DNA from: a virus
Taxonomy: Duplodnaviria; Heunggongvirae; Uroviricota; Caudoviricetes
Strand: one strand, 5' to 3'
IMG/VR virus record: IMGVR_UViG_2579778784_000007
Span: 1-43,367 of that record
Length of the DNA: 43,367 nt
Shown one piece after another: positions 1,331 through 42,128 of this stretch (within the stretch, counting starts at the first letter, position 1; each line of letters begins with the position of its first letter). Under the pieces are notes generated by a model. That model ran no database searches. It was given only the letters and a program-made list of their open reading frames with translations, and was not told the DNA's origin. A program made the position numbers and the translations under genes.

Positions 1331-1345
1331 GCTTTTTTATACTAA
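1331..1345. other. attL: attL core (O) of lambda-type site-specific recombination
   Basis: GCTTTTTTATACTAA preceded by bacterial arm (TGAAGCCTGC) and followed by the lambda P' arm (GTTGGCATTATAAAAAAGCATTGCTTATCAATTTGTTGCAACGAACAGGTCACTATCAGTCAAAATAAAATCATTATTTG) containing arm-type Int sites. Confidence 0.92.
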
Positions 1346-1418: not shown

Positions 1419-2489
1419 TTATTTGATTTCAATTTTGTCCCACTCCCTGCCTCTGTCATCACGATACTGTGATGCCATGGTGTCCGACTTATGCCCGAGA
1501 AGATGTTGAGCAAACTTATCGCTTATCTGCTTCTCATAGAGTCTTGCAGACAAACTGCGCAACTCGTGAAAGGTAGGCGGATCCCCTTCGAAGGAAAGAC
1601 CTGATGCTTTTCGTGCGCGCATAAAATACCTTGATACTGTGCCGGATGAAAGCGGTTCACGACGAGTAGATGCAATTATGGTTTCTCCGCCAAGAATCTC
1701 TTTGCATTTATCAAGTGTTTCCTTCATTGATATCCCGAGAGCATCAACATGCAATGTTGTAGGGATGGCAATTTTTACGCCCGTTTTGCTTTGCTCGACA
1801 TAAAGATATCCATCTACGATATCAGACCACTTCATTTCGCATAAATCACCAACTCGCTGCCCGGTAACAACAGCCAGTTCCATTGCAAGTCTTAGCCAAC
1901 ATGGTGATGATTCTGCTGCTTGATAAATTTTCAGGTATTCGTCAGCCGTAAGCCTTGATCTCCTTACCTCTGATTTTGCTGCGCGAGTGGCAGCGACCGG
2001 GTTTGTTGTTATATGGCCTTCAGCTATTGCCTCTCGGAATGCATCGCTCAGTGTTGATCTGATTAACTTGGCTGATGCCGCCTTGCCCTCGTCTATGTAT
2101 CCATTGAGCATTGCCGCAATTTCTTTTGTGGTGATGTCTTCAAGTGGAGCATCAGGCAGACCCCTCCTTATTGCTTTAATTTTGCTCATGTAATTTATGA
2201 GTGTCTTCTGCTTGATTCCTCTGCTGGCGAGTATTTTTTCGTAGCGATCAAGCCATGAATGTAACGTAACAGAATTATCACTGTTGATTCTTGCTGTCAG
2301 AGGCTTGTGTTTGTGTCCTGAGAATAACTCAATGTTTGCCTGTATTGCTTCAGTAATTGCTATCCTCCTGTCTCTGCCTAATCCGAACTCTTTACCCGTC
2401 CTTGGGTCCCTGTAGCAGTAATATCCATTGTTTCTTATATAAAGGTTAGGGGGTAAATCCCGGCGCTCATGACTTCGCCTTCTTCCCAT
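1419..2489 (-). CDS. int: Integrase (tyrosine recombinase), lambda Int
   Basis: 356-aa translation MGRRRSHERRDLPPNLYIRNNGYYCYRDPRTGKEF... matches my recollection of lambda Int essentially along its whole length; adjacent to attL P' arm. Confidence 0.97.
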   Translation of the reverse strand: MGRRRSHERRDLPPNLYIRNNGYYCYRDPRTGKEFGLGRDRRIAITEAIQANIELFSGHKHKPLTARINSDNSVTLHSWLDRYEKILASRGIKQKTLINYMSKIKAIRRGLPDAPLEDITTKEIAAMLNGYIDEGKAASAKLIRSTLSDAFREAIAEGHITTNPVAATRAAKSEVRRSRLTADEYLKIYQAAESSPCWLRLAMELAVVTGQRVGDLCEMKWSDIVDGYLYVEQSKTGVKIAIPTTLHVDALGISMKETLDKCKEILGGETIIASTRREPLSSGTVSRYFMRARKASGLSFEGDPPTFHELRSLSARLYEKQISDKFAQHLLGHKSDTMASQYRDDRGREWDKIEIK

Positions 2490-2685
2490 TTCTGATCCTC
2501 TTCAAAAGGCTACCTGTTATTGGTCGATTTAAGTCAACCTTTACCGCTGATTCGTGGAACAGATACTCTCTTCCATCCTTAACCGGAGGAGGGAATATCC
2601 TGCATTCGCGTACCCATCGACGAACTGTTTCAAGGCTTCTTGGGCGTCGCTGGCGTGCGTTCCACTCCTGAAGTGTCAAGTACAT
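2467..2685 (-). CDS. xis: Excisionase, lambda Xis
   Basis: 72-aa MYLTLQEWNARQRRPRSLETVRRWVRECRIFPPPVKDGREYLFHESAVKVDLNRP...; overlaps int start as in lambda. Confidence 0.95.
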   Translation of the reverse strand: MYLTLQEWNARQRRPRSLETVRRWVRECRIFPPPVKDGREYLFHESAVKVDLNRPITGSLLKRIRNGKKAKS

Positions 2686-3010: not shown

Positions 3011-3253
3011 TTATCTCCTTTGCATGGCACGTAATTTTTTCAGATGGTTCTCCTGCTCTGTTTCAGCCAGGATCTGGTGATATTCTCTGTGATCAATGTG
3101 TTCGAATAAATTATTGAATTTTCTGATGCACACTCTTCCAGGATAGCCATCCATCCTCTTGAAGAACACTGAGTGATCAGTACTACGAATGATTTTTACT
3201 GGATAGCCAGCGCTATCGGTGTATATCTGACCACGTTGAATCAGAGAGAACAT
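3011..3253 (-). CDS. Hypothetical early-left protein
   Basis: 80-aa ORF in the leftward early operon; no recognisable motif. Confidence 0.5.
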   Translation of the reverse strand: MFSLIQRGQIYTDSAGYPVKIIRSTDHSVFFKRMDGYPGRVCIRKFNNLFEHIDHREYHQILAETEQENHLKKLRAMQRR

Positions 3254-3314: not shown

Positions 3315-4265
3315 TCATTTCACCTCCTGCGGCGGTTCCGGTAGCGGCATCCAGTGAGTTGCTTGCTCAATACCATTACCCTGCTTAATCGTTGCATCTC
3401 CGCGCCGAAAGGTGCTTCCGGTATAGCGTGCGGAGCATATTAGCGGTTCAACCAGAGAGCTATCGAAATTCACTGAAATAAGCACGTTCTGGCCCTTTTC
3501 AGGCATTCGCTCACTACAGCTTATCCAACCATCCGGAGTTACCGGAGAGTTGCCGGGTTCTTTAATGTGCAAGCGAGGCTCACCATCTTTTGGCTCAGGC
3601 CACTGGCGCTCCATGTTGATCTTCAATTTATCTTCCATAGCAGCGGTAATTTCAGCATCGCTGATGCCAGCACGGCGCTGTGCATCCCACAACAGAAACT
3701 GCATATCAGCCCACTCGCTAAGATCGTCTGGTTCGGCTGCGGCTTCCAGTGCCTCTTTTGAGAGATGTTTCAGCGGGCCAACTGGACCAACACAGCCAAA
3801 CGTCTTATCTGACCATTCAGCATGGCGCTGCCGGATTAAATTGCGCAATTGAAGCGATGATCCGTTCTCCTCTGACAACTCTTCATGATTACTTGCAGGT
3901 TCGACACCCTGAAGCATGGCGGCGCGGCAGGCATTCCAGCCTCTCACCTCTGCAATAGCGGCAACAGCATCGACCGCGTACATTTTAAGAGGGTTGGGCA
4001 TTGGTTTTTCTTCAGGTACTACTGGCATTGGAGGGGCGGCGTATACTTCAATAATCCCATTATCAATAGGCCATTCTCCATCCTTGAGGTAGTCACTTGT
4101 GCCGTCAACTTGCTGTTTTGCAATGTGGAATGCACCTATTGGTTTTGCTTCCAGTGATGCCAGTGCAATTTCATAAGCACGGCGCTCAATATTGTCTCGA
4201 ACGTCCAGGCTGCCTATGCGCTCTTTGATTTCTTTAATCAGTTCTTTGTCGGTGAAAGTTGTCAT
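3315..4265 (-). CDS. Hypothetical protein with C-terminal DUF551-like domain
   Basis: 316-aa ORF; C-terminal segment ...WISCSERMPEKGQNVLI...ATHWMPLPEPP resembles the DUF551 domain common in enterobacterial prophage early regions; GAGGA SD 7 nt upstream. Confidence 0.6.
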   Translation of the reverse strand: MTTFTDKELIKEIKERIGSLDVRDNIERRAYEIALASLEAKPIGAFHIAKQQVDGTSDYLKDGEWPIDNGIIEVYAAPPMPVVPEEKPMPNPLKMYAVDAVAAIAEVRGWNACRAAMLQGVEPASNHEELSEENGSSLQLRNLIRQRHAEWSDKTFGCVGPVGPLKHLSKEALEAAAEPDDLSEWADMQFLLWDAQRRAGISDAEITAAMEDKLKINMERQWPEPKDGEPRLHIKEPGNSPVTPDGWISCSERMPEKGQNVLISVNFDSSLVEPLICSARYTGSTFRRGDATIKQGNGIEQATHWMPLPEPPQEVK

Positions 4266-4268
4266 ATG

Positions 4269-4556
4269 TTAGTCCTCATCCACTTCAACGCCATCTTTCA
4301 GCGTGATGCCGTGCCAATCATCAGCCCAACTGGTTAGCCCTGGCGCATCAATGCTAGGCATATAGACGCTTGCAGTGTGGTAGCCCTTATCGTTATCAAT
4401 GCTGGCAACGTGCTCGCCGTTGTATGCGCTCAGCGTGTCCAGGACGCTATAAAACTTTCCTCCGGCTGCCCTGAAATCCTTTACAGCCTTCACAAGGCGA
4501 TTCCACGCTTTTTCCTGTTCTGGCGTCAGGTCGATTAATTCCTGCAAAGTTGCCAT
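4269..4556 (-). CDS. Hypothetical protein (start moved to internal ATG)
   Basis: ORF-track ORF 4269..4655 overlaps the upstream gene by ~100 bp; ATG at 4556 has GGAGAG SD and an ATGA overlap with the upstream stop, giving 95 aa beginning MATLQELIDL. Confidence 0.5.
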   Translation of the reverse strand: MATLQELIDLTPEQEKAWNRLVKAVKDFRAAGGKFYSVLDTLSAYNGEHVASIDNDKGYHTASVYMPSIDAPGLTSWADDWHGITLKDGVEVDED

Positions 4557-4557
4557 A

Positions 4558-5097
4558 TCACTCTCCTTTGATGCGAATGCCAGCTGCGCTTGCTGATTCT
4601 TCATATGCGCGTTTAGCAGCGTTAAGGATTGCTGCCAGTGGCGTATAGCCGCCATCCATTCGGATTGTGTTGTGGATGCCAGCCATTGTGTCGCGCAATT
4701 TGCTGTGGCTAGCAGACAGTTCTGCTATGCACTTCTCTGCGGCTTCCAGCTCAACACGCAGTTTCCCTACCGTTAGCGCAATATCCTCGTTCTCCTGATC
4801 GCGGCGTTTTATGTATTGCTGGTTTCTTTCCCGTTCATCCAGCAGCGCCAGCACAGTAGCTGGACTGGCTGCGGCGATGAATTCAGCATTGGCCTGCTGT
4901 TCCATTTGGAAATCTTCATCGAAACCGCTTTCTGGATGCGCTCCTTCAATTCTGCAAATTGGAATATATCCAGCAGCCTCGCGATGAATTAGTGCATCAT
5001 CACCATCAAATCGGCCCTCTCCATATTCGAGCGACCACACACCACACGTTGCTTTCTCTGCCTTTTCACGCAGTACCTGATAGTCAATCTTGCTCAC
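4558..5097 (-). CDS. Hypothetical early-left protein
   Basis: 179-aa ORF, translationally coupled to neighbours; no confident family assignment. Confidence 0.55.
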   Translation of the reverse strand: MSKIDYQVLREKAEKATCGVWSLEYGEGRFDGDDALIHREAAGYIPICRIEGAHPESGFDEDFQMEQQANAEFIAAASPATVLALLDERERNQQYIKRRDQENEDIALTVGKLRVELEAAEKCIAELSASHSKLRDTMAGIHNTIRMDGGYTPLAAILNAAKRAYEESASAAGIRIKGE

Positions 5098-5492
5098 TGG
5101 CTGCCTCCTTTGCGAAGCTGGGCGGCTAACTCGTCACATATGTGCGTCAAAGAGCAAAGTTTGATTGATGGGTGTTCGCGCATCATCTCAACCCCCTGCG
5201 CCCGTACTTCAGCCAGGAAAGCGTCGGTGGCCGGGGTTTTGCAGGACATTTGAATTGCCTTCTCTGTGTATAAAACACCCGTTCGATTGGCGGTATACAT
5301 GATGGTGTTTACAGCATCTTGATGTGCTGATTTCACAGCCTCAACTTCAGCAGCCAGCGCCGCGCACTTGGCCTCCGCTTCAGCAAATTTACGCACCAGA
5401 TATTCAGCGTTTGTTTCGTTAACCTTTAAATCTCGTGGGATGCATTTGCCTTTCAGAAAACCATCCATCTCAATTAGTGTCATTTGTTTCAT
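5094..5492 (-). CDS. Hypothetical early-left protein
   Basis: 132-aa ORF; start overlaps upstream small ORF stop (ATGA). Confidence 0.55.
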
Positions 5493-5654
5493 TTCTTACC
5501 ACTCCGCCACATCGCATTCAGATATTTGTTTTGATTCACTGATGGAAAAGAATTTCTCTTAAGCAATTCCTCTCTCGATGGCATTGGCTTTACGCGTTGG
5601 CGAATAATCATTTCTGCCGGAAGAATGCCGGGATTGTATGCAAGTCCTCTCATG
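5489..5654 (-). CDS. Small hypothetical protein (54 aa)
   Basis: Not in ORF track. ATG at 5654 with AAAGAGGAA SD; [54 protein letters not shown]; stop overlaps next start. Confidence 0.35.
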
Positions 5655-5669
5655 GTAAATTCCTCTTTG

Positions 5670-5984
5670 TTAATTTATTCGTATGCCTGCTCTTTCTTCA
5701 TCGAGTTTTTTTAGCTTGTATCGCATAGCTCTTACTGAATAAATTGAGCGGCAGGTTGCAATTGCTATTTCTTCTGCGGAGAACTTACCGAAAAGTGATA
5801 CTTCGGCTCTTGTCCAGCGTCTTCCACGAAGTCGGCTAACAATGTCAGCTCCAATCCTTGTTGCTTTCGCCATTACTGCTTTTTCAGTCCTTTCCAGTTT
5901 TTCAGCGATAACTTCAACTGGCATTGTCGCCGCCACTTCGCGCAAGAAATCGACTTCCCATTTCTCCCATGGAGTCTTTTTCAT
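5670..5984 (-). CDS. Hypothetical protein, possible DNA-binding
   Basis: 104-aa ORF with two internally similar W-containing helical segments; function unknown. Confidence 0.5.
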
Positions 5985-5995
5985 AGGCGATACCG

Positions 5996-6478
5996 TTATT
6001 TGATAAGAAGTGAAGGTTTCCCAACTTTGAGTTGAGCGCCGGGGATATTTATTCCTGCTTTTAGTTGGTGTTTGATTGCCAGTTTGTCGGCTTTAATTGT
6101 CGTTTCAAACTCAACGTATTCAGGAGGAAGGGCGCTTGAGTCGATTATTTCTACAATTTCTGACGGTTTGCGGATTGTTACCTGGTGAATACCTGCTCGG
6201 ATATTTTTCTTGCCAACCATTTCAAGCGATGACGCTATATATGATTTGATGCTGTCAATCTTATTTTGAATTACTGCGGCTCGCTCATTCAGTGACTTTG
6301 CCTCTTCCTTGAGGCGTTCGGCATAACCAGATTCATTTTTAATGACGGAAAGTAGTTGCTCTATTTTATCGGTAAATTCTCCTTCCATACCTTCTATTGT
6401 GTCAGCAATCATCTCTGGTTCTAAATCTGAATCCATCAATTTTGCGTATTCATTGGCTATTTCATACAGTTTGCTCAC
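5996..6478 (-). CDS. Gp157-family protein (recombination-associated; putative host nuclease inhibitor)
   Basis: Acidic helical protein immediately downstream of recT, as is typical for Gp157-family genes. ORF-track start (6484) is TTG abutting the SD; GTG at 6478 lies 6 nt after GGAGG. Confidence 0.55.
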   Translation of the reverse strand: MSKLYEIANEYAKLMDSDLEPEMIADTIEGMEGEFTDKIEQLLSVIKNESGYAERLKEEAKSLNERAAVIQNKIDSIKSYIASSLEMVGKKNIRAGIHQVTIRKPSEIVEIIDSSALPPEYVEFETTIKADKLAIKHQLKAGINIPGAQLKVGKPSLLIK

Positions 6479-7373
6479 TGGCAACCTCCAGTTTCGCTTT
6501 GCATTCTATGTAAATGGCTTGTACGTTCTGCTGCAATTTCATTCCAGATGTCAGGCGATATGCTTCTGCAAAATATCGCTTCAAATCATCCATGTTTTCT
6601 GCCTGAGCCATTTCATCACAAAGAAGTTGTGCTTTATCCATTATTTCCTGCTGGCGTTTCCGTTCATCTTCGCGGATATCTTCCTCTGATTTGTGCGGCA
6701 TAACTGGTTCAGTCCACACACCTTCTTCTTCGTTTAGTACGTGAATAGCACTATCAAGACGTGATGCCTTAGGCCAATACTTGCTTGCACGCTTTACGAC
6801 CGTCTTTCGCGCCATCTCATTCCAGTGATTTACCCATGGTCCTTTATCGCTGAATGCTGCCTTGCTTGTTTTCCTTACAGCCTCAATTTCAGCCAGACTC
6901 ATCTCTTCCGTTAGATAATCACCTGCTGGCGTCTTAACTGTGCAGTAAACGCCAACAATATCACCACGATCACCGAAGGCGTTGTATTTATGGGTTGGTG
7001 CTTTATCAAGCCCGTTTGACTCATAGGTATCGTTAGCATGAACAAGTTTTGCCTGACCCCATGAGATAACACCAGACTCCATTGCAATATGGAGCAATCC
7101 CATATAACTGATATCAAGGCAAACCATGCCGTCGCGCGGAACCAGATAAGCCAGTTTGCTGGCCGGGTTTAAGGTGATGCCGATCGCCGCAACATTGATG
7201 ATGGCGTTCTGTGCACTGGTTGGATTTGCCAGTGCTGTTTTAGCCAGGTAATCATTTTTCTGGAAATACTGAATTGCAAACTGGCTTTCCTTAGCCCATG
7301 TCACCGTCTGTTCAGTCAATGCTCCGCAGAATAACTGCTCCTGCTGTTTAACGAATTCAACGATATTGCTCAT
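6462..7373 (-). CDS. recT: RecT-family single-strand annealing recombinase
   Basis: 303 aa; segment GPWVNHWNEMARKTVVKRASKYWP parallels the conserved RecT motif (GPWVTHWEEMAKKTAIRRLFKYLP in E. coli RecT); occupies the position of lambda bet. Confidence 0.8.
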   Translation of the reverse strand: MSNIVEFVKQQEQLFCGALTEQTVTWAKESQFAIQYFQKNDYLAKTALANPTSAQNAIINVAAIGITLNPASKLAYLVPRDGMVCLDISYMGLLHIAMESGVISWGQAKLVHANDTYESNGLDKAPTHKYNAFGDRGDIVGVYCTVKTPAGDYLTEEMSLAEIEAVRKTSKAAFSDKGPWVNHWNEMARKTVVKRASKYWPKASRLDSAIHVLNEEEGVWTEPVMPHKSEEDIREDERKRQQEIMDKAQLLCDEMAQAENMDDLKRYFAEAYRLTSGMKLQQNVQAIYIECKAKLEVASEQTV

Positions 7374-7681
7374 GCTGCTTCTCCATAAATGTGTCTGCGT
7401 TTGAATATTGCGAAGGCATATTCAGCCTTAACTCTTTCGGTTATTGCATCCCAGAACCATTCAGCGGCTTTTTCCTGATAGTTACAGTCATCATCTTCCA
7501 GCCAGTCGATAGCGTCCTTAGTGTGTTCATCTGGTTTATATGAGCGAAGCATTTCGCTTATTGGGTCGCAACGTTTGCAGAGGCGATCAACTTCACTGTT
7601 AATTCGTTCGTAATCTTCATCAGTAAAACTTGCGATTATTTGCGATATTTCACGCTTATCATTCAGAGTCAGAATCATCAT
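7370..7681 (-). CDS. Hypothetical early-left protein
   Basis: 103-aa ORF, AGGAG SD, ATGA coupling to recT. Confidence 0.5.
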   Translation of the reverse strand: MMILTLNDKREISQIIASFTDEDYERINSEVDRLCKRCDPISEMLRSYKPDEHTKDAIDWLEDDDCNYQEKAAEWFWDAITERVKAEYAFAIFKRRHIYGEAA

Positions 7682-7763
7682 CTTTCTCCTGTTCTTTGTG
7701 CTGATTGAGCATTTTGTTCATCTGACGAATGAATTCTTCGTCTGACCAGTTATCTGTAAAACT

Positions 7764-7916
7764 CATTTCCTGCGATACAACGGAAGGTTGATAGCTGATT
7801 TCATCGCTTTATTTGCTTCAAGCCACATTTTTGAATCACCAATAAATCTGGCTATTACTGCTTTGTTTTGTGCAGCACGAAGCATCTGGTGATTAATGGC
7901 TATTTCATTGCGCATA
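7764..7916 (-). CDS. Small protein in the kil position (Kil-like candidate, 50 aa)
   Basis: Not in ORF track. GGAGG SD then ATG at 7916; MRNEIAINHQMLRAAQNKAVIARFIGDSKMWLEANKAMKSAINLPLYRRK; overlaps the 3' end of the cIII-like ORF as kil overlaps cIII in lambda. Sequence assignment tentative. Confidence 0.3.
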
Positions 7917-8034
7917 ACGCCTCCAGTTGTTTCTTTGCTGCTCTGATTAATTGTTTAACTCGGCGTGATAATTCAGATTCGTGCGGGTAGAAAGCGGACA
8001 TGACGCCGCTACCCGCGAACTGAAAGTGCATCAT
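7900..8034 (-). CDS. cIII: cIII-like protein (FtsH inhibitor candidate, 44 aa)
   Basis: AAGGAG SD 5 nt before ATG at 8034; MMHFQFAGSGVMSAFYPHESELSRRVKQLIRAAKKQLEALCAMK contains an amphipathic-helix motif resembling lambda CIII (ESLLERITRKLRDGWKRLIDIL); position downstream of N matches. Confidence 0.45.
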   Translation of the reverse strand: MMHFQFAGSGVMSAFYPHESELSRRVKQLIRAAKKQLEALCAMK

Positions 8035-8100
8035 GGGTAACTCCTTCTGTTTGATTGCATAACGAAAATGCCTCGAGTGAAGCGTTATTGGTATGCATAT

Positions 8101-8124
8101 AAAAAGGCCCTCACACTGGAGGGC
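8101..8124 (-). terminator. Intrinsic terminator in the pL operon (tL1-like, N-suppressible by analogy)
   Basis: Minus strand GCCCTC-cagtgt-GAGGGC followed by CTTTTTAT; lies between the 156-aa gene and cIII-like ORF. A second 9-bp inverted repeat (GTGTATTCA...TGAATACAC) is at ~8190..8220. Confidence 0.45.
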
Positions 8125-8228
8125 AAAGAAGACTTCCAATAATCAGAACAAGTCGGCTCCTGTTTAGTTACGAGCGACATTGCTCCGTGTATTCACTCGT
8201 TGGAATGAATACACAGTGCTTACTCGTA

Positions 8229-8699
8229 CTAATAAAATACCCAATTTTCTGTTTCTTGGTTGTGCCCAAAGTTATATTCAATATCTGGTGTTGATGTATC
8301 AATATTCTTCATCCCATCAACAAGAGTTGATACAACAGCCAAATCTTGTTTGATTCTCATTAAATGGTATTTCTTCCGGCGCAATAAACTTTCAATGGCA
8401 AGTTTCTTCGTTGGGAATGCAAAAGATCTTTCTGCATTTTTTGCCACTTTCTTAATTGCATATCTATTTCTCTTTTGTTTCCATTCCTGTAACCACTGAT
8501 TTGGTGCTGGTTTAAAATTAACAATCCAATGCGCAGGAACCAACCATGCATAATGCTCTGTCTGATGAAAAGCTATATATTGAAGTGCGAATATTTTGAT
8601 CCCATCTTCTTCAACTGTCGCCTGGAATCTCCAGAAAACAGGCATTCCATCATGTTCAGTTTCTGATTCAGGAAAAGGTACGCTCCATGATTTTGTCAT
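8229..8699 (-). CDS. Hypothetical protein (156 aa), AT-rich accessory gene coupled to N
   Basis: ORF starts 8 nt after the N stop with GAGGTG SD; visibly AT-rich compared with neighbours; no recognisable domain; occupies the ral/sieB region of the lambda map. Confidence 0.6.
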   Translation of the reverse strand: MTKSWSVPFPESETEHDGMPVFWRFQATVEEDGIKIFALQYIAFHQTEHYAWLVPAHWIVNFKPAPNQWLQEWKQKRNRYAIKKVAKNAERSFAFPTKKLAIESLLRRKKYHLMRIKQDLAVVSTLVDGMKNIDTSTPDIEYNFGHNQETENWVFY

Positions 8700-8707
8700 A
8701 TCTCACC

Positions 8708-9034
8708 TCAAATAAGTGGTTTGCTGCCTAATTTCATTTTCTGGCGACCAACACAAGTCACACCCATTTCACTGCGTGGCTTGCTGTACCATGTGCGCTG
8801 ATTCTTGCGCTCAATACGTTGCAGGTTGCTTTCAATCTGTTCGTGGTATTCAGCCAGCACCGTGAGGTCTATCGGATTCAGTGCGCTTTCTACTCGTGAT
8901 TTCGGTTTGCGATTCAGCGAGAGAATAGGGCGGTTAACTGGTTTTGCGCTTACCCCAACCAACAGGGGATTTGCTGCTTTCCATTGAGCCTGTTTCTCTG
9001 CGCGACGTTCGCGGCGGCGTGTTTGTGCATCCAT
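8708..9034 (-). CDS. N: Antitermination protein N
   Basis: MDAQTRRRERRAEKQAQWKAANPLLVGVSAKPVNRPILSLNRKPKSRVESALNPIDLTVLAEYH... matches lambda N including the arginine-rich boxB-binding motif; AGGAG SD. Confidence 0.93.
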   Translation of the reverse strand: MDAQTRRRERRAEKQAQWKAANPLLVGVSAKPVNRPILSLNRKPKSRVESALNPIDLTVLAEYHEQIESNLQRIERKNQRTWYSKPRSEMGVTCVGRQKMKLGSKPLI

Positions 9035-9436: not shown

Positions 9437-10483
9437 TCACTCTGGTTCGCTGGGGAATATATTTATCAATTGCCCTGTTGAAATGTGCCCATTTTCTACA
9501 ACCTCTAGATATGAAATTTCAACAGTTGATTCTTTGGCTACAGCATTCAAAAACTCAAGAAGCTCATCAGTAGATGTTATGTCGGCTGAGGTTTTTATGG
9601 TGAAAGATTCACCATTTGAAACCCTTATGACGTCAATATTTATGTCCTGATTTGTTTCTCCCGAGCGACGAACGCCCGTGACATAAAAGTTATCTCTTCT
9701 AGTTTCCTTTTTTCGATCAATTGATTGTCTTTGGTTTAAGGTATTCAACTGTTCTCTATTTACCACTCTCTGACCAATTGTTACCCTCTCAACTGACGAG
9801 TCTTGAGCAAGCTTTTTAAGCAACTTGCTTTTACCATCCTCGCCGTGAGCCAGAACCTCTCTGCTAATGTTTGTTTGACCGCTAATCAACAACTTGAGCA
9901 CATTGTCTTGTGCTTCGTTTACCGCTTTGGTGCTTTTTTCCACCAATTGCACCTGAGAATCTTGGTCATGTCGCTGTGTTTCGTAGTACTCATTGATCCA
10001 CTTATAGCCTACCGTGCTGGCAGCTAAGACGATAGCGGCGACGGCGCATAGTGCTTGCCTTCCTGTCATTTTGCCTATCGCTTGAGTAAACACTGTCACC
10101 ACTCCGTTTACAATCGGATCTGAGTCACCATCCGCTTGGCTTGAGCCTTCGCTTATTCGGTAGACAATATCCAGCAAACCTTTCTCTGCATCTTTTAGCT
10201 TCTGCCGATTATGAGTGCTGTGACTGACTACCGTAAATGCTTTTTGTATTTCATGCGTAAGCTCTGCCATACCAAAAAGCATTGACGCAGTCAATGAAGA
10301 ATTATATCTATTTGGATCGCCTTTTACATTAATATTGATCTTTGGCCATCCACTGAAAACTACGTTAGGGAATGTGAAGTCGCTTGAGTCGATGTCCTTC
10401 CTTCCGAGCATTTCTGTTACAAAAGATACAAAGTCGTCTTCTGACTTGATAACATATTGCGCAGGTTGATCAATCGCTGACAT
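9437..10483 (-). CDS. Unknown 348-aa protein in the rexA/rexB position downstream of cI (candidate prophage defence/exclusion gene)
   Basis: Starts 25 nt after the cI stop with AAGGA SD, same strand, followed by a strong terminator; central hydrophobic stretch ALCAVAAIVLAASTVGYKWI (about residues 143..162); appears AT-rich; no recognisable motif. Confidence 0.75.
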   Translation of the reverse strand: MSAIDQPAQYVIKSEDDFVSFVTEMLGRKDIDSSDFTFPNVVFSGWPKININVKGDPNRYNSSLTASMLFGMAELTHEIQKAFTVVSHSTHNRQKLKDAEKGLLDIVYRISEGSSQADGDSDPIVNGVVTVFTQAIGKMTGRQALCAVAAIVLAASTVGYKWINEYYETQRHDQDSQVQLVEKSTKAVNEAQDNVLKLLISGQTNISREVLAHGEDGKSKLLKKLAQDSSVERVTIGQRVVNREQLNTLNQRQSIDRKKETRRDNFYVTGVRRSGETNQDINIDVIRVSNGESFTIKTSADITSTDELLEFLNAVAKESTVEISYLEVVENGHISTGQLINIFPSEPE

Positions 10484-10508: not shown

Positions 10509-11168
10509 TCACCCAAACGTCTCTTCTGGCCACTGGCTGGCGATAACTTTCCCTACAACGGAACAGCTATCATTGCATGGGATCATTGGATATTGCGGGT
10601 TTAGTGGTTGTAGGAACACCTGACCGCTATCCCTGATCAGTTTCTTGAAGGTAAACTCGTCACCACCAAGTCTGGCTATGCAGAAATCACCTGGCTCAAC
10701 AGCCTGCTCAGGGTCAACGAGAATTAACATCCCGTCAGGAAAGCTTGGCTTGGATCCTGTTGGTGCGGTCATGGAATTACCTTCAACTTCAAGCCAGAAC
10801 GCACAATCACTAGCTTTTTTGGTTGTGCTGACCCATCTCTCCGCATCACCTTTGGTAAAGGTTCTAAGCTCAGGCGAGAACATCCCGGCCTGAACATGAG
10901 AAAAAACAGGGTACTCATATTGTTTTTTAACGGGGGCAGATGAGTATTCGCCAACAGGTGAAAATGTACCGTCGTGGTTGAATGAGACGTTATCAATACC
11001 AAGGTATTTAAACACCACACCAATCTCGTCAAGAGATGGATGACGAGATCCGCGCAACCAGTGACCAATTCCACCCTGCGTCATACCAAGCTCTTCAGCT
11101 AACTTCTCTTGAGTTATGCCGAGCTCTTTCATTCTGGATCTAGCCAGTTCATACCATTTCATTTTCAT
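10509..11168 (-). CDS. cI: cI repressor (hybrid: non-lambda N-terminal HTH domain + lambda-like C-terminal S24 autopeptidase/dimerisation domain)
   Basis: C-terminal ~130 aa ([39 protein letters not shown]...[12 protein letters not shown]...FTFKKLIRD...) nearly match lambda CI as I recall it; the N-terminal ~80 aa are a different HTH_XRE domain. ORF-track start at 11210 is TTG; first ATG is 11168, and a better-spaced ATG lies at 11162. Confidence 0.9.
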
Positions 11169-11224
11169 ACCCTTATTATTACGCTCTGTACTAAAACCAT
11201 CCATGCACAAGATGTATTTTTTGT

Positions 11225-11927: not shown

Positions 11928-12089
11928 ATGACAAAACGTCGTAAGAAATACCAGGAAAAAGAAGAGATTCGACACCCTGATTCACCTGAGGGATTAGTGG
12001 TAGCCGCAGCAAATAACAGGGCGTTCGCAGAGCGCCTTGTTGGTGTTTACAGACTAGCCAAAGCAGGAGTGAAACATGGGCGTCGTTAA
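11928..12089 (+). CDS. Small hypothetical protein (53 aa)
   Basis: Not in ORF track; ATG at 11928 with GGAG SD; basic N-terminus MTKRRKKYQEKEE.... Confidence 0.35.
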   Translation: MTKRRKKYQEKEEIRHPDSPEGLVVAAANNRAFAERLVGVYRLAKAGVKHGRR

Positions 12090-12138
12090 GTTAGCTGATT
12101 ACAGGCATAACCCTGTACAACATCAGGAGGCATCCAGT

Positions 12139-13032
12139 ATGGGGTATGTCTCTATACACCGCCAGTTTATGGACAGCAGGCTCTATAAGGACTCTCAGGC
12201 AGTACATCTTTGGCTTCACTTAATCCTCAAGGCTAATCACGAATCTACTGTCGTCAATACGGATATCGGTCCGATAACTGTTGATCGCGGTCAGATGATA
12301 ACTGGACGCCCGTCGCTGGTCAGAGAAACATTCATCCCCGACAACAAAGTTAGGAGCTTATTACGGACTTTTGAGTCGAAAGGGATGCTTAATATTTGCT
12401 CGATTGGGAAGAAATTTAGCCTGTTTACAATCGTTAAATATGACGATTTTCAGGCAAAAAATTGTCCAACGGTTGTCCAACGGTTGTCCAACGCAAACAC
12501 CAGTAATGGCGCGGCTCTCAGCGGAGATTGTCCAACGGTTGTCCAACGGTTGTCCAACGCAAACACCAGTAATGGCGCGGCTCTCAGCGGAGATTGTCCA
12601 ACGGTTGTCCAACGGTTGTCCATAAACAATAATATAAATAATATCTCTAATACTGACGTATTAGAGAGTGCCACAGCAGACAAAAAGTCTGACAAGAAAA
12701 AACCTTCCGTCAGCTGTCAGGATGTTGTCGATGCTTACCACGAAATCCTTCCTGAAGCGCCAAGAATCCGCGCACTGAATGACAAGCGTAAAAACCAGAT
12801 CCGAACGTTCTGGCGCAAAGCCGGAGTGATAACCCGCCAGCTTGACGGGCATGGGTTCACGATGCAGGACTGGAGAAATTATTTGAGCTACGTTGGCGAA
12901 AATTGCCGATGGATGTTCGAAGAGCGCCCAAACCATCAACGCGGAACCGTCTGGCACAAAAAGGGATTTGATTTCCTGCTTAACGACAATACCTACCTGA
13001 AAGTTCGTGAGGGTGAACACGATGACCGATAA
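12139..13032 (+). CDS. Replication initiator / replisome organiser (O-like, P22 gene 18 type) containing origin iterons
   Basis: Start chosen at ATG 12139 (AGGAGG SD, 8-nt spacing); N-terminal HTH-like domain, an iteron-encoded 22-aa tandem repeat, conserved C-terminal domain; immediately followed by a DnaB-like helicase. Confidence 0.72.
   Translation: MGYVSIHRQFMDSRLYKDSQAVHLWLHLILKANHESTVVNTDIGPITVDRGQMITGRPSLVRETFIPDNKVRSLLRTFESKGMLNICSIGKKFSLFTIVKYDDFQAKNCPTVVQRLSNANTSNGAALSGDCPTVVQRLSNANTSNGAALSGDCPTVVQRLSINNNINNISNTDVLESATADKKSDKKKPSVSCQDVVDAYHEILPEAPRIRALNDKRKNQIRTFWRKAGVITRQLDGHGFTMQDWRNYLSYVGENCRWMFEERPNHQRGTVWHKKGFDFLLNDNTYLKVREGEHDDR
12472..12625 (+). repeat. ori: Origin-like iteron array: 11-bp unit TTGTCCAACGG in a 66-bp higher-order tandem repeat, followed by an AT-rich stretch
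   Basis: Read directly: three 11-bp units + 33-bp spacer, repeated twice and partially a third time; adjacent AT-rich segment 12622..12670; embedded within the initiator gene as in lambda ori. Confidence 0.7.
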
Positions 13033-14486: not shown

Positions 14487-14518
14487 AGGCCTGCTGGTAA
14501 TCGCAGGCCTTTTTATTT
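14487..14518 (+). terminator. Intrinsic terminator (lambda tR2-like)
   Basis: AGGCCTGC-tggtaatc-GCAGGCCT followed by TTTTTATTT between the helicase and ninB. Confidence 0.7.
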
Positions 14519-14534
14519 GGGGGAGAGGGAAGTC

Positions 14535-14975
14535 ATGAAAAAACTAACCTTTGAAATTCGATCTCCAGCACATCAGCAAAACGCTATTCACGCAGTACAG
14601 CAAATCCTTCCAGACCCAACCAAACCAATCGTAGTAACCATTCAGGAACGCAACCGCAGCTTAGACCAAAATAGGAAGCTATGGGCCTGCTTAGGTGACG
14701 TCTCTCGTCAGGTTGAATGGCATGGTCGCTGGCTGGATGCAGAAAGCTGGAAGTGTGTGTTTACCGCAGCATTAAAGCAGCAGGACGTTGTTCCTAACCT
14801 TGCCGGGAATGGCTTTGTGGTAATAGGCCAGTCAACCAGCAGGATGCGTGTAAGCGAATTTGCGGAGCTATTAGAGCTTATACAGGCATTCGGTACAGAG
14901 CGTGGCGTTAAGTGGTCAGACGAAGCGCGACTGGCTCTCGAATGGAAAGCGCGATGGGGAGATCGGGCTGCATGA
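14535..14975 (+). CDS. ninB: NinB (Orf-family recombination mediator)
   Basis: 146 aa MKKLTFEIRSPAHQQNAIHAVQQILPDPTKPIVVTIQERNRSLDQNRKLWACLGD... matches lambda NinB. Confidence 0.9.
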   Translation: MKKLTFEIRSPAHQQNAIHAVQQILPDPTKPIVVTIQERNRSLDQNRKLWACLGDVSRQVEWHGRWLDAESWKCVFTAALKQQDVVPNLAGNGFVVIGQSTSRMRVSEFAELLELIQAFGTERGVKWSDEARLALEWKARWGDRAA

Positions 14976-16245: not shown

Positions 16246-16450
16246 TTACATGAAATGGTATCTCTGCCACCGCTGGTTAATTAAGTTTGCTGTAAAAGAC
16301 TGGATGACAGCGGATGCCAACAAGCTTAAGCAACGAAAGGACTATTACTACGCCAGAATGAAGGAAAACTACTGCTCAATTCGCACTCGCATATTTATTA
16401 AAAAAGACCTTCAGTCAATTCTTCAATTGCGAGGGAAGGTAAATGGCTAA
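16238..16450 (+). CDS. Hypothetical nin-region protein (70 aa)
   Basis: ATGA-coupled to ninF; no recognisable motif. Confidence 0.45.
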   Translation: MSDYMKWYLCHRWLIKFAVKDWMTADANKLKQRKDYYYARMKENYCSIRTRIFIKKDLQSILQLRGKVNG

Positions 16451-16733
16451 CCTACGCAAAGAAGCACGCGGCAGAGAATGCCAGGTACGTATTTACGGCG
16501 TATGCAATGGTAATCCTGAAACTACAGTTCTGGCACATTACCGGATGGCTGGAATTTGCGGAACGGGAATGAAGCCTGACGACCTGATCGGCGCATGGGC
16601 TTGTAGCGCGTGTCACGATGAAATCGACCGACGCACCCATAACCTCGACAACAAAGACGCCAGACTTTACCACCTCGAAGGCGTGATCAGGACGCAGGCG
16701 ATACTGCTGAAGGAGGGGAAGATTAAGTCATGA
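16443..16733 (+). CDS. ybcO: YbcO-like DUF1364 protein (putative nuclease)
   Basis: MANLRKEARGRECQVRIYGVCNGNPETTVLAHYR...CSACHDEIDRR resembles DLP12 YbcO; sits before rusA as in DLP12. Confidence 0.72.
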   Translation: MANLRKEARGRECQVRIYGVCNGNPETTVLAHYRMAGICGTGMKPDDLIGAWACSACHDEIDRRTHNLDNKDARLYHLEGVIRTQAILLKEGKIKS

Positions 16734-41546: not shown

Positions 41547-41561
41547 GCTTTTTTATACTAA
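41547..41561. other. attR: attR core (O)
   Basis: GCTTTTTTATACTAA followed by bacterial B' arm CTTGAGCGAAACGGGAAGG; identical core to attL. Confidence 0.92.
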
Positions 41562-41651: not shown

Positions 41652-42128
41652 TTAACTAAACATCGCAGTAATCGAGGCACTCGCCAGAGAGTGAAAATGA
41701 ACGTTAAACCCGACCATCGTGCCGCTGGCACCTTCATCGACATCAATACGTTCTACATCCAGCGCGTGAACGGTAAAAATGTAGCGATGGGTTTCGCCTT
41801 TCGGCGGCGCTGCGCCATCGTATCCGGTTTTACCAAAGTCGGTACGCGTCTGCAAAACGCCGTCTGGCATTGCTACCAGACCAGAGCCAAACCCTTGCGG
41901 TAATACGCGGGTATCAGCGGGTAAATTAACAACTACCCAGTGCCACCAGCCGGAGCCGGTTGGCGCATCCGGGTCGTAGCAGGTGACAACAAAACTTTTC
42001 GTTCCCACAGGAACATCATCCCACGCCAGATGCGGTGAAATATTATCGCCATCGTAACCCATGCCGTTAAAGACATGACGATGCGGCAGCTTATCGCCAT
42101 CGCGCAGATCGTTACTGATGAGTTTCAT
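41652..42128 (-). CDS. ybhB: YbhB, PEBP/RKIP-family protein (host gene)
   Basis: 158 aa MKLISNDLRDGDKLPHRHVFNGMGYDGDNISPHLAWDDVP... recalled as E. coli YbhB, the right-hand neighbour of attB-lambda. Confidence 0.88.
   Translation of the reverse strand: MKLISNDLRDGDKLPHRHVFNGMGYDGDNISPHLAWDDVPVGTKSFVVTCYDPDAPTGSGWWHWVVVNLPADTRVLPQGFGSGLVAMPDGVLQTRTDFGKTGYDGAAPPKGETHRYIFTVHALDVERIDVDEGASGTMVGFNVHFHSLASASITAMFS

Follow-up and report, generated by a model that had tools for sequence, protein, structure and literature searches.

The recT-gp157 pair and its surroundings

The window, by which we mean the whole stretch of 43,367 nucleotides analysed, holds a prophage whose att sites are intact and whose gene set is full. 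Its boundaries are marked by two copies of the lambda att core, an exact 15-mer (GCTTTTTTATACTAA) found twice against 0 occurrences expected by chance. The virion module of this prophage is P22/Sf6-like. The leftward operon runs in the order N, orf156, cIII, kil, orf103, recT, gp157, orf104, and the interval 5996-7373 comprises exactly two minus-strand genes, recT and gp157, RecT occupying the bet slot of lambda and Gp157 the exo slot. The following features were located:

1331..1345, plus strand: lambda att core, left copy, prophage boundary
4558-5097 and 5094-5492: mosaic Ead/Ea22-type proteins, from Pfam and PHROG scans
5670..5984, minus strand: orf104, basic D5-like helix-turn-helix protein directly downstream of gp157 (PHROG 323 and 11492, weak HTH_12)
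5996..6478, minus strand: gp157, 160 aa, Siphovirus Gp157 family
6462..7373, minus strand: recT, 303 aa, RecT-family single-strand annealing protein (Pfam PF03837, PHROG 148)
6474..6725, minus strand: C-terminal tail of RecT (residues ~217-300), conserved and helical-looking, outside the Pfam RecT domain, probable docking domain for Gp157
6485..6489, minus strand: GGAGG, ribosome-binding site of gp157 as read from the sequence, within the recT coding sequence
7370..7681, minus strand: orf103, acidic 103-aa protein in the lambda gam slot (PHROG 3486)
41547..41561, plus strand: lambda att core, right copy, same 15-mer, prophage boundary

RecT scored well above the cut-offs of Pfam PF03837 (E 3.7e-32, 111.9 bits vs. 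24) and NCBIfam TIGR00616 (82.4 bits vs. 52.65) and matched PHROG 148 with E 5.9e-92; the match to the Listeria RecT structure 7UB2 was weak (E 0.0044). The core annealing domain extended approximately from residue 31 to residue 217, and ssDNA annealing is the activity predicted for this family member. Gp157 matched Pfam Sipho_Gp157 (PF05565) over profile positions 1-162 of 162 (E 2.4e-37, 128.9 bits vs. a cut-off of 28.6) as well as PHROG 253, described as 'Mu Gam-like end protection' (E 5e-54). Gene order and family matches thus agreed with the first-pass annotation, which had placed a RecT annealase and a Gp157-like gene in the bet/exo position. The mechanically called ORF of gp157 covers 5996-6484; translation most likely begins at the GTG at 6478, which lies 6 nt past the GGAGG and yields the 160 aa found in nearly all homologues. 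This GTG start overlaps the final 17 nt of recT, and the stop codon of orf103 overlaps the recT ATG (ATGA). An overlap or abutment of recT and gp157 (-3 to -33 nt) was present in nearly all of the ~99 loci compared.

Both genes are intact, translationally coupled and near-identical to the copies carried by plaque-forming phages. Module DNA was 96-98% identical in mEpX1, HK140, Kapi1, Gally, Dewey, and Louie; RecT shared 100% identity with the mEpX1 protein and 99% with HK140 gp41, and Gp157 shared 97% with HK140 gp40. The pair occurred in 301 of 5426 complete E. coli genomes. It was also found, with tight gene junctions and no nuclease, in five other genera, and distant modules in Aeromonas, Vibrio, Pseudomonas, and Pantoea retained only RecT and Gp157.

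In the slot upstream of recT, orf103 was present in 80 loci and homologues of lambda Gam in seven. The orf103 protein (pI 4.65) is rare, with only 27 clusters in 5.8 billion proteins, and its AF2 model, built on a 10-sequence alignment, was all-helical and of low confidence (pLDDT 53). No Gam match was obtained for it in Pfam or PHROG, and the hhalign comparison with lambda Gam (E 0.004, probability 8%, only 24 columns) fell short of homology. From its position, we infer that orf103 is a candidate host-nuclease inhibitor. On the other side, orf104 was present downstream of gp157 in 86 of ~99 loci, being conserved together with the module, and was weakly similar to Mu gp9, a neighbour of Mu gam.

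Gp157, Mu Gam and the C-terminal tail of RecT

Mu Gam is a Ku-like DNA-end binder assigned to a Pfam family (PF07352, Phage_Mu_Gam) different from that of Gp157. That profile was also matched by 38 of 145 diverse Gp157 members (best E 5.3e-6); the Gp157 of the window itself gave no match to it even at E <= 1. When 143 diverse Gp157 representatives were aligned by hhalign with the Mu Gam profile, remote similarity was detected over the C-terminal domain (E 3e-4, probability 39%), the Mu Gam profile being of low diversity (120 homologues listed, all at least 72% identical). A low-diversity Gp157 alignment compared with the single Mu Gam sequence gave a weak result (E 0.053). The AF2 model of Gp157 (pLDDT 83) consisted of a 67-residue helix and a small beta domain of ~65 residues, and this architecture of long helix plus small beta domain is common to Mu Gam. 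In phage Mu a D5-like small ORF adjoins gam, as orf104 adjoins gp157 here, but no annealing protein does so, unlike the arrangement of recT and gp157. Judged by these comparisons, Gp157, a family without conserved catalytic-type residues, is probably a distant homologue of Mu Gam, and by analogy end binding and blocking of RecBCD may be its functions.

The tail of RecT, of ~85 residues, displayed the motif LCxxMxxAxxxxxLKxxFxxAYxxTxGxxLQxNVQxIYxxxKxKLE and seems to behave as a portable domain of ~50-85 residues. It was present in 26 phage records, and every record examined had Gp157 directly downstream. In Pantoea phage PdC23 the same tail was attached to an ERF-core protein, again with Gp157 directly downstream, whereas RecT homologues without the tail were followed by a YqaJ-type exonuclease; RecT-core relatives with 50-76% identity in other phages carry such an adjoining exonuclease. 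The correlation between tail and partner comes from ~13 distinct tail-bearing phages and five tail-less ones, and the ERF case of PdC23 is its sole independent evidence, because linked genes are co-inherited anyway. Docking of a C-terminal domain onto a partner has a precedent (PMC6393309). Since the tail strictly accompanies Gp157, even on ERF, and tail-less RecT pairs with an exonuclease, the tail is probably a docking domain for Gp157. This co-occurrence and the alternation of orf103 with lambda Gam appear as two modest new leads.

Search for an exonuclease and alternative readings

No nuclease domain was detected in any early-left ORF by Pfam, PHROGs, NCBIfam, and PADLOC scans, RecT being the sole match of NCBIfam and PADLOC in these ORFs. 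When lambda Exo, four other YqaJ-type exonucleases, and the C-terminal half of RecE were used as tblastn and phmmer queries, no match was obtained in the window, and a lambda-Exo/YqaJ or RecE nuclease was absent beside recT and gp157, in the rest of the window, and in ~110 related loci. Thus, the 5'-3' dsDNA exonuclease beside an SSAP that defines a SynExo was found neither here nor in those loci. The statement of the first-pass annotation that none of the adjacent ORFs resembles a RecE or lambda-Exo-type nuclease was borne out by these searches. Its title, which described a recombinase without an obvious partner exonuclease, was right about the exonuclease, yet it overlooked that RecT has an assignable partner of another kind, Gp157, which from its probable remote homology to Mu Gam is a predicted DNA-end binder and RecBCD blocker. 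Its suggestion that the prophage may rely on host nucleases coincides with the accepted reading of nuclease-less Rec modules (PMC12315714).

A further suggestion, that one of the neighbouring small ORFs could be a novel exonuclease partnering RecT, was not supported. The candidates (orf103, orf104, and the ORFs at 5094-5492, 4558-5097, and 4269-4655) lack an assigned function, and orf103 is translationally coupled to recT and its model is of low confidence, which speaks for such an activity. However, all of them are of 180 aa or less, and no nuclease signature appeared for 7370..7681, 5670..5984, 5094..5492, and 4558..5097 in the four profile libraries or in PDB sequence searches, where the orf103 profile, orf104, orf132, and orf179 returned only coiled-coil noise. 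Besides, orf103, predicted to be all-helical, gives way to homologues of lambda Gam in sister modules, orf104 is a basic helix-turn-helix protein, the Ead/Ea22-type ORFs vary freely among otherwise identical modules, unlike a required partner, and the modules of Aeromonas, Vibrio, Pseudomonas, and Pantoea do without any of them. We consider a nuclease hidden among these ORFs very improbable. Much the same probability was assigned to the idea that the nuclease sought is Gp157, which would then be a small exonuclease of a new kind resecting ends for RecT. Gp157 occupies the exact lambda exo position, is translationally coupled to recT, and co-varies with the RecT tail as Exo does with other tails. 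Foldseek matches of its model in BFVD, mostly to unnamed proteins, also included weak resemblance to parts of two actinophage PD-(D/E)XK/RecB-like proteins (E 6e-3 and 0.12), but the TM-scores of 0.28-0.46 may reflect the long helix only. Against the PDB the same model gave nothing below E 0.66, the elongated monomer model being a poor query, and PDB sequence searches with Gp157, either as a single sequence or as a 145-sequence profile, produced only coiled-coil noise; nuclease matches were equally lacking in Pfam, NCBIfam, and PADLOC. The near-invariant residues among the 145 diverse members were only L6, K40, Y82, K134, G144, and G149, and the lack of any conserved Asp, Glu or His argues against a hidden nuclease. 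In addition, the long helix with its ~65-residue beta domain is too small for known nuclease folds, and the family is probably related to a non-catalytic end binder.

The existence of RecT-core relatives with an adjoining YqaJ exonuclease could also point to a decayed lambda-Red or RecET module whose exonuclease was lost in a defective prophage. This reading is the hardest to sustain, as the same nuclease-less pair is present in the plaque-forming phages mEpX1, HK140, Kapi1, Dewey, and Gally, is kept with tight junctions in the five other genera, and shows no exo remnant by tblastn within a prophage that is otherwise complete. On the evidence given, we rejected all three readings: a nuclease concealed in one of the small ORFs, nuclease activity of Gp157, and loss of exo through decay. 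A less remote, though still unlikely, alternative is that RecT works essentially alone on ssDNA at replication forks, gp157 being adjacent by chance and serving, independently of RecT, in anti-defence or 'phage resistance'. Single-strand annealing proteins are by themselves sufficient for oligonucleotide recombination (see PMC8093625). The Pfam description of Gp157 concerns phage resistance, and Mu-Gam-type proteins interact with defence systems, e.g., Gabija (PMC12407980). In contrast, adjacency in overlapping frames is strict across genera, the tail of RecT or ERF co-occurs with Gp157 only, and the Erf and Sak4 annealing proteins of Firmicutes phages likewise have Gp157 or Mu Gam genes beside them (PMC8093625).

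Known relatives and proposed mode of action

Taken together, the locus is best read, with a probability of about three in four, as a lambdoid Rec module of the HK140/mEpX1 type, with a core of recT and Mu-Gam-like gp157 and no phage exonuclease. Gene content, order, and sequence types were those of the HK140 module, catalogued as having SAP-4 and a "MuGam" anti-RecBCD protein but neither nuclease nor SSB (Zheng, Casjens, Davidson, Amundsen & Smith, Genome Res 2025, PMC12315714), the 'MuGam' gene of HK140 being equated here with Gp157 from the RefSeq annotation and our alignments. HK140 and mEpX1 present the identical order of orf103, recT, gp157, and D5-like ORF and show no material difference; what varies are the flanking Ead/Ea22-type accessory ORFs and the virion module, as expected for mosaic lambdoid phages. 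The nuclease-less pair of RecT and predicted end binder is therefore real, but already known and ordinary. As stated it matters little: the exact module is catalogued, and Rec modules of this sort are common, 84 of 246 lambdoid ones having no nuclease (PMC12315714).

Comparison with other systems placed the module among known types. PMC12315714 puts phage P22 (Erf, Arf, Abc1, Abc2) into the same functional class, with an annealing protein, an anti-RecBCD function, reliance on host enzymes, and no phage nuclease; its proteins are, however, non-homologous to those found here, its annealing protein is of the ERF family, and the target of Abc2 is RecC, not DNA ends. The SynExo systems lambda Red (Gam, Beta, Exo) and Rac RecET share the early-left operon position after cIII and kil, and likewise have an SSAP whose C-terminal partner domain is separate, but in them the exonuclease half is present, whereas here the exo slot holds a predicted end binder resembling Mu Gam. 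In Firmicutes phages, Gp157, Mu Gam, DUF1351, and DUF2483 genes flank Erf, Sak4, and RecT with the same pairing logic, the gene lying usually upstream of the SSAP, with an SSB coming after (PMC8093625), in contrast with the downstream position overlapping recT in our window.

Outside the Rec module, the prophage carries other recombination genes, of which NinB/Orf and RusA had gone unmentioned in the first-pass annotation:

14517..14975, plus strand: ninB (lambda Orf family), recombination mediator in the nin region (Pfam NinB PF05772, E 1.3e-54)
16443-16733: YbcO putative nuclease, just upstream of rusA (Pfam YbcO, E 1.8e-44)
16730..17092, plus strand: rusA, Holliday-junction resolvase (Pfam RusA, E 2.3e-16)

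Chi sites were 0 in the 40 kb of the prophage vs. ~1 expected, a value not statistically distinguishable from chance and compatible with the low-Chi pattern published for phages having a Rec module and an anti-RecBCD gene (PMC12315714).

In the mechanism that we propose, Gp157 dimers would cap the dsDNA ends of phage DNA and exclude RecBCD, like Mu Gam. RecT would anneal ssDNA exposed at replication forks or by host enzymes such as RecJ acting with RecQ, and phage DNA could thereby circularise, form concatemers, and undergo exchange with other prophages. In these steps NinB/Orf and RusA would presumably aid loading and resolution. The C-terminal tail of RecT would probably dock on Gp157, delivering the annealing protein at protected ends, and orf103, in the gam slot, may act as a second anti-nuclease or host-takeover factor. 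A more specific version is tentative, and we hold it to be somewhat doubtful: Gp157 would be the physical partner of RecT through the portable tail, forming a 'synaptase plus end-binder' complex that replaces the synaptase-exonuclease one, with resection left to the host, and orf103 would be a new substitute for lambda Gam, unrelated to it in sequence.

If true, docking by the tail would show that end protection can be coupled to loading of the annealing protein in phages with no exonuclease of their own. It would also explain why SSAP cores are able to be shuffled among Exo, RecE, and MuGam partners, an analysis explicitly left open by PMC12315714, and RecT plus Gp157 might serve as a compact cassette for recombineering with dsDNA in recBCD+ hosts. 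The two genes are routinely annotated side by side as 'RecT' and 'siphovirus Gp157 family protein'.

The recT/gp157 module and its prophage setting

A lambdoid prophage of about 40.2 kb, integrated at att-lambda, is delimited by the lambda att core GCTTTTTTATACTAA, which occurs without mismatch at 1331-1345 and again at 41547-41561. The left flank (1-1284) is presumably a ybhC-like gene and the right-flank ORFs were taken as ybhB/bioA, in both cases by ORF size, position and translation. Since the sole Chi site of the window (41943-41950) falls in the host flank, the prophage is Chi-free, with about one site expected by chance.

Genes of the leftward early operon
10509-11210, minus strand, cI
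9437-10483, minus strand, 348-aa ORF
8708-9034, minus strand, N
8229-8699, minus strand, orf156
7900-8139, minus strand, cIII
7763-7915, minus strand, kil
7370-7681, minus strand, orf103
6462-7373, minus strand, recT
5996-6478, minus strand, gp157
5670-5984, minus strand, orf104
5489-5653, minus strand, DUF2737
5094-5492, minus strand, orf132
4558-5097, minus strand, Ead/Ea22
4269-4655, minus strand, orf128
3315-4265, minus strand, dATP/dGTP pyrophosphohydrolase-DUF551 fusion
3011-3253, minus strand, DUF4222
2467-2685, minus strand, xis
1419-2489, minus strand, int

Compared with the lambda order cIII, kil, gam, bet, exo, orf103 occupies the gam slot, recT the bet slot and gp157 the exo slot. 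Judged by sequence, RecT clearly belongs to the RecT family (PF03837, E 3.7e-32; PHROG 148, E 5.9e-92; TIGR00616, score over the cut-off), and its match to the solved RecT structure 7UB2 was weak. Gp157 matched PF05565 over the whole profile length (E 2.4e-37) and falls in PHROG 253, labelled 'Mu Gam-like end protection'. The TTG start at 6484 of the ORF list was set aside for the GTG at 6478, which lies 6 nt behind a GGAGG (6489-6485) and gives a product of 160 aa, the length of nearly all homologues and of HK140 gp40. The gp157 start overlaps the final 17 nt of recT, and the orf103 stop and the recT start overlap as ATGA; as read from these junctions, orf103, recT and gp157 are translationally coupled.

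Module DNA was 96-98% identical in mEpX1, HK140, Kapi1, Gally, Dewey and Louie, RecT being 100% identical to that of mEpX1 and 99% to HK140 gp41, and Gp157 97% identical to HK140 gp40. Because the same DNA sits in sequenced phages, the absence of an exonuclease is not peculiar to the window copy. Among 5426 complete E. coli genomes, 301 carried the pair, whose members PGAP labels 'recombinase RecT' and 'siphovirus Gp157 family protein'. In the 316-aa product of 3315-4265, an N-terminal part of unknown function precedes a dATP/dGTP pyrophosphohydrolase domain (PF04447, E 4.9e-43), with DUF551 at the C-terminus.

Search for a partner exonuclease

The first-pass annotation had seen no exonuclease beside recT and gp157, and the searches bore this out: profile scans of the early-left ORFs (Pfam, PHROGs, NCBIfam and PADLOC) gave no nuclease signature, and the window yielded no match to lambda Exo, four other YqaJ-type exonucleases or the C-terminal half of RecE. 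Other DNA-processing genes occur in the prophage (NinB/Orf, YbcO, RusA and an HNH-AP2 homing-type endonuclease), none of which is a resection exonuclease. For comparison, the Gp157 profile was used to fetch 80 loci from IMG/VR and 29 from species-level genomes. recT and gp157 were adjacent in the approximately 99 loci holding both, usually overlapping by 3-33 nt, and no lambda-Exo or RecE-nuclease homologue was found in any of these. From 17 species-diverse loci, 100 ORFs on the same strand and 130 aa or longer were also scanned against Pfam; the 25 families listed include integrases, repressors, HNH_3, DUF551, Dam and others of this kind, and contain neither YqaJ nor RecE.

Two explanations had been offered for this arrangement. 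A novel exonuclease among the early-left ORFs gained nothing from the signature scans, and neither orf103, orf104 nor the Ead/Ea22-type ORFs are credible candidates: orf104 is basic (pI 10), falls in a D5-like regulator PHROG and is kept downstream of gp157 in 86 of the ~99 loci, and the Ead/Ea22-type ORFs differ among otherwise identical modules. Reliance on host nucleases, the other explanation, is reasonable.

This type of module has been catalogued before and occurs in well-known phages; the exonuclease-less recT/gp157 arrangement is known from the literature (PMC12315714; PMC8093625). Zheng, Casjens, Davidson, Amundsen and Smith (Genome Res 2025, PMC12315714), who surveyed Rec modules in 325 lambdoid phages, enter HK140 with MuGam, find no nuclease gene in 84 of 246 Rec modules, and count 46 members in the P22 functional class, which combines an anti-RecBCD function with an annealing protein (SAP) and lacks both nuclease and SSB. 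Most phages that combine a Rec module with an anti-RecBCD gene have no Chi sites (PMC12315714), a pattern with which the Chi-free prophage is consistent. In Firmicutes phages, Gp157, Mu Gam, DUF1351 and DUF2483 genes share a position beside Erf and Sak4 genes (PMC8093625).

HNH_3(-AP2) homing-type endonuclease genes were recurrent (downstream of Q in the window, 17987-18499; relatives' loci L085, 5537-6004, and L116, 3147-3611; phage Louie), and in some relatives such a gene sits, as an insertion, precisely between the gene for the annealing protein and gp157.

Gp157 and the slot upstream of recT

Gp157 is best assigned as a probable remote Mu Gam homologue and DNA-end binder, the window protein itself giving no match to PF07352 (Phage_Mu_Gam), on the basis of family matches, profile alignment, predicted structure and conserved residues. 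The family is very large, with 12,959 representatives of 50%-identity clusters at E <= 1e-3; of the 150 top-scoring ones listed, almost every one had a length of about 160 aa. PF07352 was matched by 38 of 145 diverse members (best E 5.3e-6), and hhalign of a 143-member Gp157 profile against the Mu Gam profile (E 3e-4, probability 39% only) aligned the C-terminal domain (residues 102-155 with Mu Gam 100-159). The AF2 model (pLDDT 83) has two helices, one short and one of 67 residues, besides a small beta domain, and Foldseek matched it to no solved structure. Only L6, K40, Y82, K134, G144 and G149 were near-invariant in the diverse alignment; the lack of Asp, Glu and His among them speaks against a nuclease that depends on metal ions. 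Mu Gam, as a dimer, binds to the ends of DNA and blocks RecBCD (PMC12315714; PMC12407980).

In BFVD, the weak partial matches of the Gp157 model included a 398-aa PD-(D/E)XK protein from Tsukamurella phage TIN4 (E 6e-3) and a RecB-like exonuclease from Arthrobacter phage KellEzio; these matches may reflect nucleases with a fused Gp157-like domain, or similarity of the long helix only. Distant Gp157 homologues (31-35% identity) were preceded by a large ORF other than RecT, of 654-658 aa with no Pfam match in four Proteus loci (L104-L106 and L111), and of 737 and 513 aa in E. whittamii (L107) and C. murliniae (L108), respectively; a short stretch of the 513-aa ORF resembles the non-nuclease part of RecE.

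Among syntenic modules, 80 loci have orf103 in the slot directly upstream of recT and 7 have a lambda Gam homologue (phage Dewey, L083, L088, L090 and L100 included); in HK639 and KO-TP1 the gene at this position is 'gam-like'. The slot thus alternates between orf103 and Gam-type genes, and therefore some phages, for instance Dewey and HK639, have a Gam-type plus a Mu-Gam-type gene around recT. By analogy of position, this alternation suggests that orf103 may be an anti-nuclease or host-takeover factor. Its relatives formed 27 clusters only, all from E. coli-like sources; the protein is acidic (pI 4.65), its low-confidence AF2 model (pLDDT 53) is made up of helices alone, and it had no match in Pfam, PHROG-function, NCBIfam, PADLOC or PDB searches. 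Aligned with Gam by hhalign, it stayed below significance (24 columns, E 0.004, probability 8%).

The alternation was noted for the window together with L002, L083, L088, L090, L100, L120 and L121. Three further loci, L084, L092 and L101, have an ORF of 92-94 aa in this slot; that of L092 was the only one matching lambda Gam by tblastn, weakly (E 7.6e-4), and those of L084 and L101 resemble the Gam N-terminus by eye. An ORF of ~31 aa (MSFTDNWSDEEFIRQMNKMLNQHKEQEKDDD) lies between kil and orf103 (about 7670-7764), and the database protein P0025 looks like this peptide fused to the C-terminal half of orf103. As in phage Mu (gp9), a small D5-like HTH ORF adjoins the Gam-type gene in the window (5670-5984), the likeness of orf104 to Mu gp9 (L112, 1983-2282) being weak (pairwise E 5e-5).

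The RecT tail and a proposed mode of action

With RecT as tblastn query, many relatives aligned over residues 1-218 or 1-233 only (50-76% identity). The last 87 residues alone retrieved 26 phage records. A Gp157 gene lay directly downstream in every tail-bearing record opened (mEpX1, HK140, Dewey, Pantoea PA-1, HK639, Klebsiella KO-TP1, Pseudomonas 15b, Aeromonas phiA005, Aeromonas 4_L372X, Vibrio 1.247.A and, after an HNH insertion, Pantoea PdC23). The five tail-less RecT-core relatives opened (PA2, PhiR12_3, Vibrio 1.119.O, Yersinia vB_YenM_12 and Cronobacter ENT47670) were each followed by a YqaJ/lambda-Exo-type exonuclease and had no Gp157. The conserved tail motif is LCxxMxxAxxxxxLKxxFxxAYxxTxGxxLQxNVQxIYxxxKxKLE. 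In PdC23 the tail-bearing protein belongs to the ERF family (PF04404, E 6e-44), not to RecT, and is followed by a PF05565 protein; the window tail (6474-6725, RecT residues ~217-300) was 56% identical to it over 46 aa (L116, 2941-3147). Because the sample is small and linked genes are co-inherited, only this ERF protein supports in a truly independent way a coupling of tail and Gp157, a lead that goes beyond the published description. This coupling and the alternation of orf103 and Gam are two modest, testable leads.

Most likely, Gp157 would cap DNA ends and RecT would anneal single-stranded DNA arising from host-supplied resection or replication forks, with NinB and RusA assisting.

Elsewhere in the early region, the 348-aa ORF (9437-10483; PHROG 6191) lies between cI and N, where lambda has rexAB; it had no match in Pfam, NCBIfam or PADLOC and may serve in exclusion or defence. 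A perfect 66-bp tandem repeat of 2.5 copies (12461-12622), each unit with about three copies of the 11-mer TTGTCCAACGG, is located within a replication-initiator-like gene (12076-13032), in whose product it duplicates a 22-aa peptide; these repeats are probably origin iterons.
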